Assembly (NCBI GenBank): GCA_964356815.1
Contig: CAYHIR010000002.1
Location: 7,418 to 71,417 of the forward strand
Source: an uncultured Candidatus Saccharibacteria bacterium
GTDB lineage: Bacteria > Patescibacteriota > Minisyncoccia > Phycocordibacterales > DATGWK01
DNA: 64,000 bases
Reading direction: 5' to 3'
The translations under genes and the position numbers were made by a program. Positions 7,068-56,089 of the stretch are shown here, in pieces. The notes beneath the pieces are model-generated. The model did not search any database and was not told where the DNA came from. It worked only from the letters and a program-made list of their open reading frames with translations. The number at the start of each line of letters is the position of its first letter. Positions within the stretch are counted from its first letter, which is position 1.

Positions 7068-7376
7068 TCCGCGATAGCTCAGCTGGTAGAGCGAGCGACT
7101 GTGAACAAAATCGCAGCTTCCCGAAGTAATTCGGGTTGAAAAACGAGGTTAATTGCTGGAAGCCCACCCGATCGAAAGATCGCGGGTAATCAGCAGCCGA
7201 GCCTGTCATTCGACAGGAAGGTTCAGAGACTATCCCTAACGGGAGTACTTGGCCGAAAGGTCTAGGAAACACCTCGCGCCCCATTTATTGGGGCGATGAT
7301 ATAGTCCATCCCTTTAAGAAATTTTAGGATCGATGTAATCGCTTGGTCGCAGGTTCGAGTCCTGCTCGCGGAGCCA
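7068..7376 (+). tRNA. tRNA-Asn (anticodon GUU) interrupted in the anticodon loop by a group I intron
   Basis: 5' half 7068-7102: acceptor TCCGCGA, D-arm GCTC/AGCTGGTA/GAGC, anticodon stem AGCGA, loop CTGT. 3' half 7336-7376: TAA, TCGCT, variable TGGTC, T-arm GCAGG/TTCGAGT/CCTGC, acceptor TCGCGGA, discriminator G, CCA. The spliced anticodon loop is CUGUUAA. Confidence 0.75.
7103..7335 (+). ncRNA. group I self-splicing intron (233 nt, no ORF)
   Basis: R element GTTCAGAGACTA (7221-7232) and S element GATATAGTCC (7298-7307) form P7. The 5' exon ends in U and can pair with intron GCAG (7113-7116) as P1. The terminal nucleotide is G (omega-G) at 7335. Confidence 0.7.
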
Positions 7377-27770: not shown

Positions 27771-27800
27771 CGCCGCGACTCACACTCGCGGCGTTTTCAT
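27771..27800 (+). terminator. rho-independent terminator
   Basis: CGCCGCGA-ctcaca-CTCGCGGCG followed by TTTTCATTT. Confidence 0.6.
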
Positions 27801-27858
27801 TTGCAAAAATTATCTCCCCACTCCGAAATAAATAGTTTTGAGTAAGTATAAGAAATTA

Positions 27859-27968
27859 GAAAATCCCCCAAGTGTGTTGAAAAATGACTACGCAGGCCGA
27901 AGAGGCCGAGGACTAGGAAATTTCACCAGAAATTTCCGGTCATTTTGAAGCACACTTGGGGGATTTTC
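27859..27968. repeat. MITE-like palindromic element: 18-bp perfect terminal inverted repeats flanking a 70-bp core (copy 1 of 2)
   Basis: TIRs GAAAATCCCCCAAGTGTG / CACACTTGGGGGATTTTC. Core 27879-27948 differs at one base from 39128-39197. It contains GGCCGAAGAGGCC and GGAAATTTC-acca-GAAATTTCC. Confidence 0.6.
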
Positions 27969-27973
27969 TATTA

Positions 27974-29257
27974 CTAATAATTCCTCAACCTATTAATATC
28001 CGCATGTTGCCTAATCTTCTCATGCGCTTTTGCCTCAATCTGTCGAATACGCTCGCGAGTCACACCAAATTCCTTGCCCACCTCTTCAAGTGTGTGGGTG
28101 ATGCCGTCTACCAAACCGTGACGCATTTCGAGAATTTTGCGCTCTTTGGCTGGCAAGTGATCTAAGATTTGTTTAACTTGATCAGAAATAATTCGGCGAG
28201 AAGATTCTTGGTCGGGAGAAAGAATTTTGTCGTCGGCAATAAAATCGCCAAGAGTTGATTTGCCATCGTCGCTGTCGTCGCCTACCGGGCTTTCAAGTGA
28301 GACTGTGTTTTGGTCAATTTTTTCTATTTGATAAATTTTCTCCACATCCATATTCATTTCAGTGGCTACTTCTTCGGGCATCGGATCGCGGCCAAGGTCT
28401 TGAGAAAGTCGGCGTACGACTTGCTTGTATTTAGCAATCGTCTCCACCATATGCACCGGCACGCGAATGGTGCGCGACTGATCAGCTAACGCACGAGTAA
28501 TGGCCTGACGAATCCACCATGTGGCATAGGTAGAAAATTTATAACCCTTCGTCCAATCGAATTTGTCGACAGCTTTGAAAAGGCCGAGATTGCCTTCTTG
28601 AATGAGATCGAGCAAAGTGAGATCTGGGCTACGGCCAACATATTTTTTAGCGATAGAAACCACGAGGCGAAGATTTGAACGAGCGAGCAAATTTCGCGCC
28701 TCTTCTTCACCAGCGATAATGCGCCGAGCAAAATCTTTTTCTTGGGCGCCGGAAATGAGCGGATATTGGCCGATTTCTTTGAGATACATTTGAATGGAAT
28801 CGTACGAAGAACCCTCGCCACCGTAAGAATATTTCTTGCCCACGACAGGATCGTCTGGCGACATGTCAAGCAAGCCGCCGCTTTCAAGGACATCCACACC
28901 CGCTTCGGCGAGGCGCAAATATAGATCTTCGAGAAATACGAGGTCAGTTTCGATTGTTGGAAATTCTTTGAGAATTTCGTCGTAGGTAATGAAGCCGCGC
29001 TCTCTGCCCTTAGTGAGTAAGTGCTTCACACCAAGCTCGAGCTTTTGAGCCTTTTTCTGAAGTATTGGTGAGAGTTTTACTTTTGGTTTTGACGACTTTG
29101 ATTTTGAAACTTTTGCCAACTTCACTTTCTTCGCAGACTTGGCGACTGTTTTTTTCTTAGGAACTTTTTTCTTGGCCGGCTTTTTTGATTTATTTGACTT
29201 CTTTGCGTGAGTTGCCTTTTTTGCTGACTTTGTTTTTTTGTTTTTTTGTTTTTTCAT
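27974..29257 (-). CDS. rpoD: RNA polymerase sigma factor RpoD (sigma70) with lysine-rich N-terminal tail
   Basis: Regions 1.2 through 4 ([47 protein letters not shown]). First 65 aa are K-rich. Confidence 0.9.
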
Positions 29258-38130: not shown

Positions 38131-38456
38131 GATTAATTATTTAGCGATTGATAAGTTCTAAACCGACGGTCAGACCGGCAAACGCACCGGCAAAAACAAC
38201 AAATTTCGCACAAACAAACAAAAACACGCCCTATCCACAATAGGGGCTTGTTAACCTCTTAAATATTTATCTATTAAAATGGGACAAAATACCGAAAGGA
38301 TTAAAACGCCTTGCTAATCCTTCATTTTCTAGCCGTAACTCAATCGTATTTGAAGTATCGCGATTATAGTCGACTATCAATTTTCTGTCAAGAAGGGTTA
38401 AAGGAGGGTGTGGGGATAGCCCAGTTTGCTATATGTCTCGAAATGACCATGGCGAG

Positions 38457-39107
38457 CTAACCCCTCCTCCACCCCTCTATCCTCTTATGATCCCCCGATA
38501 GCAAAACTTTCGGCACATTATATTTTTTTCCTTTATAAACGAGCTTTTCCGGGCGCGTATACACATCCGAGCTGGCGGCGCGCGACTCTTCAATAGACTC
38601 GGCATTGCCGAGGACTTCTGGCACTTGGCGGGCGACAGCATCTAAGATAATCATGGCTGGCAATTCCCCACCAGTGAGCACGAATGGGCCAACAGAAATT
38701 TCTTCAGCGCGGAAAATTTTTCTCACGCGAGCGTCGACACCTTCATAACGACCGCAGATGATAATTATGTCTGTGAATTTTTTAGAAAATTGCGAGGCGA
38801 CTTCGTTTGTAAATTGTTTGCCGGACGGCGAGAGAAAGACGATCTTCGGCTTCTTTTTAGATTTTTTGGCTGCAGTGCCGAGGGCTTTTTCAATTGCCTT
38901 AATAATCGGCTCGGCACGCATCACTCGGCCGGGGCCGCCGCCGTAGGGTTTGTCGTCGGCACGCTTGGCAGAACCTTTCGGCTCAAAATCTTTTGGATCG
39001 TAAAATTTGACCGCGATTTTTTTGTCTTCTATCGCACGCTTAATAATCGACTCGCCGAGGTATGAGTCAAATGATTTTGGGAAAAGGGTGATTATATGAA
39101 AAATCAT
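38457..39107 (-). CDS. trmD: tRNA (guanine37-N1)-methyltransferase
   Basis: SPOUT/TrmD motifs (ICGRYEGVDARV, GGELPAMII). Short form of 216 aa. Confidence 0.8.
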   Translation of the reverse strand: MIFHIITLFPKSFDSYLGESIIKRAIEDKKIAVKFYDPKDFEPKGSAKRADDKPYGGGPGRVMRAEPIIKAIEKALGTAAKKSKKKPKIVFLSPSGKQFTNEVASQFSKKFTDIIIICGRYEGVDARVRKIFRAEEISVGPFVLTGGELPAMIILDAVARQVPEVLGNAESIEESRAASSDVYTRPEKLVYKGKKYNVPKVLLSGDHKRIEGWRRG

Positions 39108-39127
39108 TTTGGTTTTTTCGTTTGTAA

Positions 39128-39197
39128 ATAATGTATCGAAAAATGACTACGCAGGCCGAAAAGGCCGAGGACTAGGAAATTTCACCAGAAATTTCCG
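39128..39197. repeat. 70-bp palindromic repeat core (copy 2 of 2), without outer TIRs
   Basis: 69 of 70 nt identical to 27879-27948. Lies between trmD and the upstream KH-domain gene. Confidence 0.6.
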
Positions 39198-39233
39198 GTC
39201 ATTTTGAGATATTTTATTTACAAACGAAACTAA

Positions 39234-39545
39234 CTAAAGCTTGAGATCCGCCATCGCCTCATCTACCGTCTTCGAAGCCTTAACACCCTTTGTACTACCT
39301 TCAGGTTCGTTGATTTTTAGATTGACACGAGCGTTGTTTTTCATACCGACGACTCGGAGAAGGGTGCGGACGGCCTTTGCGGTGTTGCCTTCGCGACCGA
39401 TGACTTTGCCCATGTCGGCGGAGTGGACATCGAGGGTGAGGAGAACGCCCATTTCGTCTACCGTGCGCTGAATCTTGACATCATTTGGATTATCTACTAG
39501 AGATTTGATTACAAATTCCAAAAACTGTGCGTCGTTTTCCATCAT
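39234..39545 (-). CDS. KH-domain RNA-binding protein (YlqC/UPF0109 family)
   Basis: VIGREGNTAKAVRTLL KH motif. Lies between rpsP and trmD as in many bacteria. Confidence 0.75.
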   Translation of the reverse strand: MMENDAQFLEFVIKSLVDNPNDVKIQRTVDEMGVLLTLDVHSADMGKVIGREGNTAKAVRTLLRVVGMKNNARVNLKINEPEGSTKGVKASKTVDEAMADLKL

Positions 39546-43852: not shown

Positions 43853-45880
43853 ATGAAAGAAAGTGGTAAAAATGCCGGGCAGTCGCAAAGTCCACTCCAA
43901 GGCCTAGTATCCGTCAGCTCAAAAGGCATCGGGTATTTTCGTTTGCCGGAGGCGAAGGCGGATGATGAATCTGTCGAGATAGACACAGCCGGGCTCAAAA
44001 CAGCTCTCAATCGCGACCTCGTGGAGATAGTCCTCCATCCTGCCGTAGCTGGCCGAAAGCAGACGGGCGAAGTGGTGAAAATTGTAAAGCGCAATAAGAC
44101 GCGTTTTGTGGGTATTGCTCAGAAAAATGGTGGGCTCTATGTGGTGCCGGATGATCGCCGCATGTATCGCGACATTTTGATTACGGAAAAGGCGGCCGCG
44201 GCGAGTGGTGCGAAAGTTGGCGACAAAGTGCTCGCGCAGATTGTTGATTGGACCGACTCGGCGAAAAGTCCGATGGGTGAAATTGTTTCTGTTATTGGAC
44301 GCGCGGGCGAACACGATGCCGAGATGCGAGCGATCGTTGCTGAAAGCGGTTTTGATATTTCTTTTCCGCCAGAAGTGGAACACGAAGCAGAAACAATTGC
44401 CGCGGAGGAACGCGCCCGCCTCGACGAAGAAGTAAAACTCCGTCGTGATTTCCGCGACATCACCACCTTCACCATCGACCCTGCCGACGCAAAAGATTTT
44501 GACGATGCGCTTTCTGTGCGTGAGTTGAGCGCGGCAGAAGTGGCAAAAAAGTACGCCTCCCGCGGCGAAAATTCTCCCGGAAAAATTTACGAAATCGGCG
44601 TCCACATTGCCGATGTCTCCCACTACGTCCGCCCCGGCACAGCGCTCGACGATGAAGCAATAAAGCGCGGGCTTTCTGTGTATCTCGTTGATCGCACTAT
44701 CCCGATGTTGCCCGAAGTGCTTTCAAACGATCTCTGTAGCCTAAATCCAAATGTCCCCCGCCTATCTTTCAGCGCCGTTTTTGAGATGAACGGAGAGGGC
44801 GAAATTTTAAACGAATGGTTTGGCAAAACGGTCATCAATTCCGACAAACGCTTTAGCTATGAAGATGCGCAGAAAGTCCTCAATGCCGGCGCAGGAGAAT
44901 ATTTCGATGAACTTAGTTTGCTCAATCGCATTGCCAAAAAATTGCAGGCGAAAAAATTTGCGGCGGGAGCGATTGATTTTGAGACGGAAGAAGTGAAGTT
45001 TCGCCTCGACGAGCACGGCGTGCCAATAGAAGTGTATAGAAAAGAGCGACTCGAAACGCACAAACTGATCGAAGAATTTATGTTGCTCGCCAATCGCCGC
45101 GTGGCCGAGCATGTTTTCAAAGCAAATAAAAATAAAGGCGCGACGTTTATCTATCGCATTCACGATTTGCCAAACCCAGACAAAATTGCCGACCTCGAAA
45201 CTTTTCTTAAGGCGCTCGATATTGATCTCGTTGCCGGCGCGAGTGGCAAAAAAGGCAAAGGTTCGGGCAACATCAGCTCAAAAGATATAAATAATTTGCT
45301 CAAACGCATTGAAGGCACACCACACGAGTCGCTTATAAAGACAGCTGCCATTCGCTCGATGGCCAAAGCGATTTATTCTACAAAAAATATTGGTCATTTT
45401 GGTTTGGCTTTTGAATATTACACACACTTCACATCGCCGATTCGTCGTTATCCTGATCTTTTGGTGCATCGTTTGCTTCAACGCGAACTCACGGGCGGCA
45501 AAATCAAGCAAGATGAATTTGCTTTTTATGAACGCATTGCCGCCGACGCCTCTGAAAAAGAAATTTCTGCGTCTGAAGCTGAGCGCACATCTATTAAATA
45601 CAAACAAGTTGAATACATGTCGAAACACATCGGCGAAGTTTTTTCTGGCACGATCACCGGCGTGGCCGACTGGGGCATTTTTGTGGAAGAAAAAAATACT
45701 AAGTGCGAAGGTCTCGTGCGCATGCGCGATCTCGGCAACGACTTTTGGAATCTCGATAAAAAACGCTACGCAGTCATCGGCGAACGCACCAAAAAAACTT
45801 TTTCTCTCGGTGATGAAGTAAAATTTAAAGTTGTTGGTGCGGATTTGGAGAAAAGGATGTTGGATTATGTGTTTGTCTAA
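43853..45880 (+). CDS. rnr: ribonuclease R (RNB-family 3'-5' exoribonuclease)
   Basis: Cold-shock/OB N-terminus, RNB domain with DPADAKDFDDALSV, and a C-terminal S1 domain. Confidence 0.85.
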   Translation: MKESGKNAGQSQSPLQGLVSVSSKGIGYFRLPEAKADDESVEIDTAGLKTALNRDLVEIVLHPAVAGRKQTGEVVKIVKRNKTRFVGIAQKNGGLYVVPDDRRMYRDILITEKAAAASGAKVGDKVLAQIVDWTDSAKSPMGEIVSVIGRAGEHDAEMRAIVAESGFDISFPPEVEHEAETIAAEERARLDEEVKLRRDFRDITTFTIDPADAKDFDDALSVRELSAAEVAKKYASRGENSPGKIYEIGVHIADVSHYVRPGTALDDEAIKRGLSVYLVDRTIPMLPEVLSNDLCSLNPNVPRLSFSAVFEMNGEGEILNEWFGKTVINSDKRFSYEDAQKVLNAGAGEYFDELSLLNRIAKKLQAKKFAAGAIDFETEEVKFRLDEHGVPIEVYRKERLETHKLIEEFMLLANRRVAEHVFKANKNKGATFIYRIHDLPNPDKIADLETFLKALDIDLVAGASGKKGKGSGNISSKDINNLLKRIEGTPHESLIKTAAIRSMAKAIYSTKNIGHFGLAFEYYTHFTSPIRRYPDLLVHRLLQRELTGGKIKQDEFAFYERIAADASEKEISASEAERTSIKYKQVEYMSKHIGEVFSGTITGVADWGIFVEEKNTKCEGLVRMRDLGNDFWNLDKKRYAVIGERTKKTFSLGDEVKFKVVGADLEKRMLDYVFV

Positions 45881-48940: not shown

Positions 48941-49639
48941 CTAAAACTTTTTCGTCGTAAGCGCCTTTTCGGCCGCCGCTTGTTCGGCATCTTGTTTTGA
49001 TTTGCCTTCACCGGTCGCCACGAGTTCACTGCCGAGATACACACCGACGGTAAACTTTTTATCGTGATCAGGACCGGTCTCCTTCATTGTACGATATACA
49101 GGGGTCTGACTGGTAGCATCTTGTGCTTGTTCCTGAAAAAGACTTTTCGAGTCAATCCACTCACCTTTTTTAATAATGTCTTCAATGAGCGGTGAAATGT
49201 TGTCTAAAATAAATTTTTTAACCACGTCAAAACCCTGATCCATATAAATCGCGCCGATTATTGCTTCGAGAGTGTTGGCTAAGATAAATTGACGAGCCCG
49301 ACCTTCGGAATCTTTGGCCTCGCCGCGAGAAAGACGGAGAAAATCATTCACTTCGAGCTCTGTAGCTACGTGTGCGCAAGTGGTGGCATTTACGAGCGCC
49401 GAACGGTAGGCAGTGAGATCGCCTTCGTTGGCCTTTGGATATTTTTTGTAAAGAAAATCGGTAATAACGAGCTCGAGTACTGCATCACCCAAAAATTCGA
49501 GGCGTTCATTATGATCGTTCGCGGTGTCTTTGTTTTCGTTTATAAAAGAGCGGTGCGTAAAAGCCTGCTCTAAAAGAGCCTTGTTTTCAAAAGATATACC
49601 AATCTTTTTTTCAAAAATTCCGAAATCAATCTGAATCAT
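48941..49639 (-). CDS. rnc: ribonuclease III
   Basis: ERLEFLGDAVLEL signature plus a C-terminal dsRBD. Confidence 0.9.
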   Translation of the reverse strand: MIQIDFGIFEKKIGISFENKALLEQAFTHRSFINENKDTANDHNERLEFLGDAVLELVITDFLYKKYPKANEGDLTAYRSALVNATTCAHVATELEVNDFLRLSRGEAKDSEGRARQFILANTLEAIIGAIYMDQGFDVVKKFILDNISPLIEDIIKKGEWIDSKSLFQEQAQDATSQTPVYRTMKETGPDHDKKFTVGVYLGSELVATGEGKSKQDAEQAAAEKALTTKKF

Positions 49640-50838: not shown

Positions 50839-50887
50839 GGGTTGGATTGTACACGATTATTTAATAAAGACAATGCTCACAGCAGAA

Positions 50888-51000
50888 AGTATGACTGAAG
50901 TAACCGGCGTAGATTTCTACTGAAATCTCGCCTCACTCGGAGCCGCCTACGCGGCTTCCGAGAGTTACTTCAGTCATACTTTCTGCTGTGGCCACTAGTT
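50888..51000. repeat. 113-bp nested palindrome: 27-bp perfect inverted repeats enclosing two internal hairpins
   Basis: Arms CACAGCAGAAAGTATGACTGAAGTAAC / GTTACTTCAGTCATACTTTCTGCTGTG. Internal AGATTTC/GAAATCT and CTCGGAGCCGC/GCGGCTTCCGAG hairpins. Confidence 0.6.
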
Positions 51001-51053
51001 ATTAAAATAATTGTTAAAAAACTGGCAAGAAAAAACTCCCTGGGTCCACGGAC

Positions 51054-55424: not shown

Positions 55425-55462
55425 AAGGTTCCGAACGGCTAATTACCTAAGGAGCCTTTTTC
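55425..55462. terminator. bidirectional rho-independent terminator
   Basis: AAAAAGGTTCC-loop-GGAGCCTTTTT between convergent dnaE and the NYN gene. Confidence 0.55.
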
Positions 55463-55980
55463 ATTTCTATTTTTCTTCTGGTGTCCCCATCATCAAGCGC
55501 CGCAAAACATGGTGCGCCAAGCTTGTCGTACAACGATGAAGCTCTCTCGCCGTCAGGAAAAAGAATTTTTTCAAGCTTTTGCTCGGTGATTAAAAAATCA
55601 ACAAGCTGTCTGTAGTCACCATCCCCAGAAACCAGCACGATTTTATCAAACAATTCTTTATAGTAGAGTTTTTTCATAACATTAAAAATAATGTCGGAAT
55701 CAACATTTCCTTTCTTTTTGCCAAGCATAAGTGATGTGTGTTCACGAAATAGCAAAATGAACCCGGCACTTTGTATGTTTTCATACAATGATTGCTGTGA
55801 TTCATCTAGATATCCCAAAAAATAAAAGGCTTTTGATACATCGTATTTTTTCTCAAGATAAACACGAAATCGCGCAAGATCAACTTTCCATGGGTCAATT
55901 TCTCGCTTTGCAGTACCTAGGTAAAGATTTTGTCCATCTATGAATGCGAGGTTTTTTATTTGTTCATCGTTTGTGGCCAT
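55447..55980 (-). CDS. NYN-domain (LabA-like, PIN-fold) protein
   Basis: AFIDGQNLY and LVSGDGDY acidic motifs of NYN nucleases. Confidence 0.65.
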   Translation of the reverse strand: MATNDEQIKNLAFIDGQNLYLGTAKREIDPWKVDLARFRVYLEKKYDVSKAFYFLGYLDESQQSLYENIQSAGFILLFREHTSLMLGKKKGNVDSDIIFNVMKKLYYKELFDKIVLVSGDGDYRQLVDFLITEQKLEKILFPDGERASSLYDKLGAPCFAALDDGDTRRKIEMKKAP

Positions 55981-56089
55981 TTTGGTATTACAAAACAGCA
56001 ATATAACAAAAGTTGGCTCAATATTTTTTTAAGAAATAATAAAGAATGAACGATTTGGCCTTTTACCCTAAAAAAGCTATTATTTTGAA

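Follow-up and report, generated by a model that had tools for sequence, protein, structure and literature searches.

Correia/CREE, ERIC/IRU, RUP and RPE elements are non-autonomous intergenic repeats of about 100-130 bp whose transcripts form long stem-loops and which can supply terminators or RNase III sites. In the tiny, dense genomes of Candidate Phyla Radiation (CPR) bacteria, or Patescibacteria, we know of almost nothing on repeats or non-coding RNAs, and our literature searches on CPR repeats and structured RNAs of the kind described here returned nothing relevant. REP, BIME and REPIN sequences are short non-coding palindromes that lie between genes or at their 3' ends in many copies per genome (PMC3116915, PMC3733652, PMC8049555). 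Their classes are uniform inside one genome but not the same from one genome to the next, persist at orthologous sites and occur in either orientation, and what is recognised is a single strand that has folded with conserved mismatches. Here we describe an element that resembles REP and REPIN sequences in these respects, and Correia-type repeats in being a small, non-autonomous intergenic long hairpin. It was found in a stretch of 64,000 nucleotides of contig CAYHIR010000002.1 (hereafter, the window). While a REP conserves its stem, with a GTAG or CGTC tag at the foot, the element in the window has a locus-specific stem and a conserved three-way junction at the apex. REP/REPIN-type elements are its closest known biology, with the layout inverted (conserved apex, variable stems). 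The element belongs to a previously uncatalogued family of dispersed non-coding repeats from a narrow Paceibacteria (CPR) clade of ultra-small groundwater bacteria. Our preferred reading, to which we assign a probability of about one half, is that of a nested-palindrome repeat, similar to REPs and to MITEs (miniature transposable elements with inverted repeats), with arms that DNA template switching keeps complementary.

A core of 70 nt (GAAAAATGAC...GTCATTTTGA) occurs twice in the window, at 27879-27948 (copy 1) and 39138-39207 (copy 2), and the sole difference between the two, GAAGA versus GAAAA, lies in a hairpin loop. A preliminary description of this DNA had recognised both copies and the single-base difference, but had placed copy 2 at 39128-39197, 10 bp too low. 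When the window was searched with a 66-nt query allowing up to three mismatches, just these two sites were matched, and none was found in 100 shuffled sequences. The inverted repeats AAAATGAC/GTCATTTT that bound the core and the internal hairpin GGAAATTTC-ACCA-GAAATTTCC are present as first described. The sequence GGCC-N5-GGCC, also pointed out at that stage, is indeed there as the stem-loop of one hairpin of the module, but the SfiI-type site is not a conserved feature, because the loop of this hairpin measures about 2-5 nt in relatives. Copy 1 is embedded in a perfect inverted repeat, which extends over 20 bp (27857-27876 and 27951-27970) rather than the 18 bp initially given. Copy 2, which had been thought to lack such ends, has a perfect inverted repeat too, 16 bp long (TTTCGTTTGTAAATAA/TTATTTACAAACGAAA; 39116-39131 and 39214-39229); these arms form five more inner pairs and are unrelated in sequence to those of copy 1. 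Each whole unit (27857-27970 and 39116-39229, both with the plus strand as the folded strand) is thus a long stem with a three-way junction on top, and in both the predicted fold is much more stable than that of shuffled sequences (z = -9 to -11). For copy 1, the minimum free energy is -65 kcal/mol, compared to -58 for the complement.

Read from 5' to 3', the module of copy 1 (27879-27948, plus strand) consists of GA, the 5' strand of an 8-bp helix termed P1 (AAAATGAC), the junction J1 (TACGCA), hairpin 1 (GGCC-GAAGA-GGCC), the junction J2 (GAGGACTA), hairpin 2 (GGAAATTTC-ACCA-GAAATTTCC), the junction J3 (G), the 3' strand of P1 (GTCATTTT) and a second GA. This plan of GA, P1, a three-way junction with two hairpins, the P1 return strand and GA is common to the family, in which every near-perfect Watson-Crick, locus-specific stem of 16-27 bp is capped by a conserved module of about 70-86 nt, with P1 bounded by a GA/GA internal loop.

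Contigs identical to the window sequence come from Hainich H41 groundwater metagenomes, and one core 21-mer retrieved four further distinct copies, three of them on other contigs of the same sample with the same coverage. In total, the census comprises 14 distinct full-length members and two copies cut by contig ends. At least six near-identical copies of one sub-family, A1, lie on contigs of a single groundwater sample at the same coverage, and these contigs probably belong to one genome. Apart from copies 1 and 2, these are located at the stop codon of bipA (contig L005), about 10 nt after 5S rRNA (L006/L009) and after tRNA-Arg (L007/L008), with the sixth truncated by a contig end; another copy, from a JGI metagenome, lies 2-3 nt upstream of tRNA-Glu (L004). 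In the near-identical A1 copies a core of about 50-58 nt is the same in all save for loop bases, while the basal stems have no sequence in common. The three substitutions that distinguish copies of the same genome all fall in loops (p about 0.004, own calculation). More diverged members are carried by contigs of related Paceibacteria: L090 (two), L091, L092, L093, L099, L018 and L016. The element is therefore the dispersed, multi-copy intergenic sequence that it had been suspected to be, non-coding and 98-130 nt long, with at least six A1 copies, one member of a second type (B) and one relic in the same sample at the same coverage. Four contigs (L003, L004, L009 and L016) end inside elements, so the repeats probably break assemblies and their copy number is probably underestimated.

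The B-type member (c3; 50878-50990, folded strand minus) came from a scan of the window for long inverted repeats, which revealed no long perfect hairpin lacking a module of this kind at its apex. Its arms are perfect over 27 bp, and hairpin 1 (CUCGGAAGCCGC-GUAG-GCGGCUCCGAG), UGA, hairpin 2 (GGCGAGAUUUC-AGUA-GAAAUCUACGCC) and G make up its three-way junction; the hairpin-1 loop, GUAG, recurs in L092. This loop is the only place at which the REP-like GTAG appears, and GACG is found as the hairpin-1 loop of L099. On one side of the element there is a terminator-like hairpin with a T-run (about 51024-51052, minus strand; read by eye), and on the other, upstream of rpmF, a promoter-like site; the scan that found the promoter-like site reported no terminator-like site there. 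The relic, of the A2 sub-family (38421-38458, minus strand), retains only the 3' half of an element, namely the 3' strand of hairpin 2, J3, the 3' strand of P1, GA and the 3' arm. It directly follows the stop codon of trmD, which now lies at the deletion junction, and an intact element occupies the same position in L090 (966-1074). Decay of this sort, as expected of a dispensable repeat, is thus visible within the window itself.

Two further observations concern individual contigs. On L016 (1-197, minus strand) two B-type elements stand in tandem, with arms nearly the same as each other and as those of a single element on L018 (48-166, plus strand); whole elements, arms included, have therefore been duplicated or inherited in that lineage. 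On L007, a hairpin at 252-326 downstream of tRNA-Arg takes its 5' arm from the 3' part of the tRNA's own T-arm and acceptor (TTCGATTCCTGCC), with an inverted copy downstream, and the 19-nt 3' end of the tRNA (GATTCCTGCCGGGAGGATA) recurs as a direct repeat (255-273 and 401-419) immediately ahead of the A1 element; these repeats look like an old integration or duplication at a tRNA 3' end. A protein common to the flanks of copies was also considered, but the two neighbouring 391-aa open reading frames (ORFs) proved unrelated (BipA and YibE/F).

Across the family, three sets of unpaired bases are invariant: CGCA (CGGA in the B type) ahead of hairpin 1, GAG on its 3' side and the G that leads into the closing helix; hairpin-2 loops read ANYA in most members, and hairpin-1 loops are GNRA-like (GAAGA, GAAAA, GUAA). 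A covariance model built from five copies (R1) recovered all other identified members except L093, each on the strand predicted by the order of its hairpins; in the window, the matches were copy 1 (27877-27950, plus strand, 102 bits), copy 2 (39136-39209, plus strand, 102.6 bits) and the B-type element (50893-50975, minus strand), which scored 22 bits with R1 and 52 bits with a second model, R2. With filters off, R1 gave no further match in the window. R2, which comprises the R1 set and two truncated copies, was run on 0.93 Mb and found no new member among the other GTDB loci and relatives that this sequence contained, which suggests that the family is limited to a narrow clade. In the model alignment 98.2% of cells pair, a percentage inflated by the fitting of the alignment to the model, and 20 of the 23 pairs display double (compensatory) changes; none of 500 shuffles reached this, and controls with slid partners were 23-62% paired.

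The two strands of the element are not equivalent. In all 14 full-length members the strand as written is more stable than its complement, by 1.5-10.4 kcal/mol, and it holds 23 G·U pairs compared to one on the complement; the locus-specific arms alone contain 12 G·T and no A·C on that strand. These two asymmetries indicate that one defined single strand, either RNA or single-stranded DNA, is under selection, the alternative being a mutational process that is equally asymmetric.

Such features could be those of a functional structured RNA family with a role at the level of the host, in which the three-way junction is active and the long stem presents or insulates it. Candidates would include a small RNA that cleaves itself or binds a protein, an element for processing or stability and a trans-acting scaffold, with the copies being paralogous genes or cis-elements and not mobile DNA. 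We regard this as a strong rival, though less probable than the preferred reading. It accounts well for the strong covariation and for junction bases (CGCA, GAG, G) that stay the same across sub-families whose helices have changed, for G·U pairs on the same strand that carries the tandem GA and the GNRA-like and ANYA loops, and for the restriction of substitutions between copies to loops. The same can be said of the modules of L090 and L091, which keep J2, J3 and P1 while hairpin 2 changes by compensation, and of the filling of the same spacers in several species (the spacer between the KH-domain gene and trmD in four relatives, the 3' end of rpoD in two).

The genomic orientation of the elements fits a host RNA less well. 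Amid tightly packed co-directional genes, the folded strand is sense to its neighbours in five cases (both L090 elements, L093, the B-type element of the window and L004) and antisense in five (copy 2, L005, L006/L009, L091 and L092), while copy 1 and L007 lie between convergent genes. No common promoter was found upstream of the elements, and nothing consistent emerged from a comparison of promoter and terminator consensus sequences around the three window elements. In addition, there is no Rfam match, the relic shows that loss is tolerated, and the cores are homogeneous in the window genome and unlike those of the positional ortholog, which suggests spread or conversion rather than vertical descent.

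The absence from Rfam was established with Rfam 15 at gathering and E-value thresholds for three sub-families, and only sub-threshold matches to generic long hairpins (miRNA precursors) were obtained. Compared by eye, the junction does not match those of hammerhead, hairpin or twister ribozymes or of purine riboswitches. A strict core pattern had no match in 185,579 species-representative genomes, viral contigs contained neither the A1 21-mer nor an A2 pattern, and phage and plasmid collections gave no match. A loose J1-hairpin-J2 pattern did select at least 120 stretches in G+C-rich phage contigs, which we attribute to a different 'hairpin + Shine-Dalgarno' repeat or to chance. Four G+C-rich IMG/VR contigs (L162, L185, L210 and L170) each carry several copies of a repeated ACCGCAGG-hairpin-CCGAGGAAC unit with covarying stems and no Rfam match; an ATG immediately follows at least one of the copies, and the unit may therefore combine a hairpin with a Shine-Dalgarno sequence, and its likeness to J1-hairpin 1-J2 of the module is superficial.

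The preliminary description had taken the inverted repeats around copy 1 for terminal inverted repeats (TIRs) in a MITE-like layout; on a classical MITE reading, copy 2 would be a truncated copy. In fact, the outer arms are unrelated at every distinct locus and are related only in orthologous or tandem copies (the window, L090 and L091 between the KH-domain gene and trmD; L016 and L018), and, because they differ from copy to copy, they are not TIRs recognised by a transposase. The expected target-site duplications are likewise missing: no direct repeats lie outside the arms, and none is seen at the one pair of filled and empty sites. Nor is the layout that of a cut-and-paste element with a sharp constant end, since A1 similarity fades outward through the 8-bp helix. 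Bacterial MITEs share their TIRs across copies and are flanked by target-site duplications, while here the outer repeats are unique and the duplication is absent. A classical MITE would explain the perfect 20-bp inverted repeats of copy 1 and a small, intergenic, multi-copy sequence, and the GA that adjoins P1 at either end, seen in 7 of the 14 members (10 of the 14 being A type), could represent a 2-bp duplication. The same GA could also be a tandem G·A pair; in 7 of the 14, tandem GA/GA lies at a distance of 8 bp below the junction. The sequence of AAAATGAC/GTCATTTT itself differs from copy to copy, with compensation, and L004 lacks TGAC/GTCA. Copy 2 has a separate set of outer repeats, and no related autonomous insertion sequence that shares the ends turned up in the 64-kb window, the related loci or the phage and plasmid collections. 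We consider the classical MITE reading to fail, its outer repeats not being TIRs and target-site duplication being absent, and give it almost no weight.

How the arms and modules change over time was followed at orthologous sites, which were reached by following TrmD, RpoD and a vWA protein into related contigs. Between the KH-domain gene and trmD, L090 (TrmD 89% identical) has arms homologous to those of copy 2, with three positions changed on both arms, yet its module is of the A2 sub-family and in sense orientation, opposite to the antisense A1 module of copy 2. L091 (TrmD 84%) again has homologous arms, with one indel present in both, and an antisense A2 module that is inverted relative to that of L090, identical to it in J2, J3 and P1, and different by two compensatory changes in hairpin 2. 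In L092 (TrmD 80%) the spacer contains a B-type element with unrelated arms, and in L093-L097 (TrmD 71-73%) there is no element, with ordinary 11-15-bp hairpins instead; L093 carries a related element in the rpsP-KH spacer. After rpoD, a diverged element in L099 has the position and orientation of copy 1, and L098 has a plain hairpin. After trmD, the intact A2 element of L090 corresponds to the half-deleted relic of the window. Finally, after 5S rRNA, a relative from the L091 sample (L220) has an empty site with no hairpin; where the site is filled, ancestral sequence (the T-run) contributes only the outer T7/A7 pair, and the inner 11 bp of the arm have no local source.

We infer the mode of spread and the upkeep of the arms from these comparisons. 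On our preferred reading, the family would consist of non-autonomous palindromic elements that are propagated or exchanged as hairpins. Cores are homogeneous within a genome, and different sub-families prevail in different genomes; spread or exchange of the module among hairpins is suggested by these homogeneous cores, by a module unlike that of the positional ortholog, by the relic and by the repeated occupation of the same spacers. Replication template switching between the arms would keep them complementary at the DNA level, and the same process could invert the module and lengthen the arms, in part with sequence from the flanks. Switching of this kind between the arms of inverted repeats is reported to homogenise the arms and invert the spacer (PMC8604942) and to create and maintain hairpins (PMC8794818). 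It fits the present case because indels are symmetric, double changes fall on both arms, the arms are near-perfect in Watson-Crick pairing and a module stands inverted within inherited arms. The homogenised arms, symmetric multi-nucleotide changes and spacer inversion described for quasipalindromes (PMC8604942, PMC8794818) are those seen among the window, L090 and L091. Unlike the elements described here, however, template switching is a general mutational process that yields no element family, and it leaves the conserved module and its copying to new loci unexplained.

Several points weigh against this reading. The genes of the 64-kb window include no transposase, integrase or reverse transcriptase, and no mobilising enzyme or mechanism was identified. 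The arms match no flank of the other copies compared, and the inner arm at the filled 5S site is without a local source; template switching would therefore explain how arms are maintained and inverted, and not their full origin. The inverted orthologous A2 modules of L090 and L091 keep identical junctions and change by compensation, which looks like functional constraint in situ rather than selfish DNA. The filled and empty 5S sites are unpolarised and fit either insertion or precise loss, the assignment of L005-L009 to the window genome is drawn only from a common sample and similar coverage, and the inflated paired fraction of the model alignment counts here as well.

A different source for the arms would be hairpins that were already in place, with a mobile module inserting into their loops, for example by means of a single-strand-specific enzyme of the HUH/Y1 type that acts on the strand as written, and the arms being the old stems. 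The copies do lie where terminators or attenuators would be expected (after rpoD, 5S rRNA, tRNA-Arg, bipA and trmD and in the spacers of rpsP, the KH-domain gene and trmD), the arms of copy 1 are terminator-like, and relatives without an element have 11-15-bp hairpins in the same spacer. The same arms also enclose different modules in the window and L090, TYGA adjoins both module ends, and folding is strand-specific as in the substrates of IS200/IS605 and REP enzymes. Nevertheless, the empty 5S site has no hairpin, and no other hairpin of the window comes close in length to arms of 20-27 bp; every long perfect hairpin there has a module. No candidate enzyme gene was seen in the window or related contigs, and no Y1_Tnp domain (RAYT) is present among the called genes of the window and of the partial related contigs. 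The orientation is also not uniform with respect to the apparent direction of replication, as copies 1 and 2 are oriented opposite to the B-type element, and the GC skew has no switch in the window. Loop insertion is thus an improbable account. The IS200/IS605-derived PATEs, and other elements of single-stranded DNA, offer a similar comparison, being without TIRs or target duplication and having strand-specific hairpins and boundary tetranucleotides (here TYGA). PATEs, however, have two similar subterminal hairpins, a fixed 3' target and a bias to one replication strand, while the elements described here have a single three-way junction, no pair of similar end hairpins and no consistent orientation.

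The arms could also be seen as acquired 'spacers' (guide and passenger) below an apical handle, with duplexes of about 20-25 bp serving defence or regulation of the short-hairpin RNA type. A constant scaffold with unique perfect duplexes of 16-27 bp, an inner arm without a local source at the filled site, GA/GA at a fixed distance from the junction, which could mark a cleavage site, and the RNase III encoded in the window at 48941-49639 are all in keeping with such a programmable hairpin. Against it, no arm has a match beyond chance in the sequences compared or in viral contigs, the arms between the KH-domain gene and trmD are inherited vertically and drift, and outer parts of arms overlap local flank or stop codons. 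A search for sequence from which arms might have been copied returned self matches only in the loci compared, and three arms run against viral contigs gave one 18-19-mer at the level of chance. The arm of copy 2 at 39117-39129 shares 13 nt (TTCGTTTGTAAAT) with the coding sequence of trmD (38802-38814, codons QFTNE); this match does not covary in L090 and is therefore probably due to chance. We consider a programmable hairpin very unlikely.

It is also conceivable, if rather unlikely, that the module is an active structured nucleic acid, either a new small ribozyme or a recognition handle for an enzyme, that caps or seeds hairpins, generates inverted copies of the sequence next to it and propagates in a manner that has not been described. 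The orientation of the module might, in addition, act as an invertible switch.

As first described, each window copy is located 3' of a gene on the minus strand. A gap of 3 nt separates the 3' arm of copy 1 from the stop codon of rpoD (27974-29257, minus strand; Pfam Sigma70 domains), and on its other side copy 1 faces a plus-strand ORF served by a terminator of its own (27771-27793). The spacer of 126 nt that copy 2 fills lies between a gene for a KH-domain protein (KhpA-like; 39234-39545, minus strand), whose stop codon is 4 nt from one arm, and trmD (38457-39107, minus strand), whose start codon is 8 nt from the other; the folded strand is antisense to both, as that of copy 1 is to rpoD. 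These three genes and rpoB, rpoC and dnaG are all on the minus strand of the window. The nearest species-representative genomes are metagenome-assembled genomes of Paceibacteria-type CPR bacteria, with DnaG only 44% identical.

These positions bear on a possible effect at the RNA level. From the predicted folds, transcription of either strand would yield a double-stranded RNA stem of at least 20 bp, a plausible substrate for RNase III or a barrier at 3' ends, and at rpoD copy 1 would be a plausible terminator; terminators, RNase III/E processing sites or a small regulatory RNA had also been suggested in the preliminary description. Similar to intrinsic terminators, the elements directly follow stop codons and RNA genes, and with their A-tract, G+C-rich stem and U-tract the arms of copy 1 look like a terminator of the intrinsic, bidirectional type; L005 also has a U-rich tract and a matching A-tract. 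Unlike terminators, they have stems of 20-27 bp and a structured insert of 70 nt, and most copies lack a U-tract, with none in copy 2, L006, L007, both L090 elements, L091 or the B-type element of the window. A terminator scanner flags only hairpin 2 with GGTCATTTTG. In addition to RNase III, the window encodes an exonuclease of the RNase R/II type (43853-45880) and a NYN-domain nuclease (55447-56001); if the 20-27-bp stems are transcribed, RNase III is the obvious candidate to act on them. Elsewhere in the window, a tRNA gene at 7068-7376 (plus strand) carries a group I intron in its anticodon loop (Rfam Intron_gpI, 7093-7328, 70.9 bits); ARAGORN in intron mode identifies it as tRNA-Asn(gtt) with a 233-nt intron, and in a default run finds no tRNA anywhere in the window.

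Palindromic repeats normally have conserved ends and a variable middle, and in this family the logic is reversed: the middle is conserved, and the stems vary and yet stay perfectly paired. The covariance model R2 can be used to annotate such repeats. With modules swapped and inverted within inherited arms, and with a constraint on one strand regardless of gene direction, these elements provide a natural system for the creation and maintenance of hairpins by template switching. If the module turned out to act as a ribozyme or as the handle of an enzyme, this would point to a new mechanism of mobility or RNA processing, and, if it is active in the way outlined above, the family would constitute a class of hairpin elements, mobile or programmable, that is new and specific to CPR bacteria.

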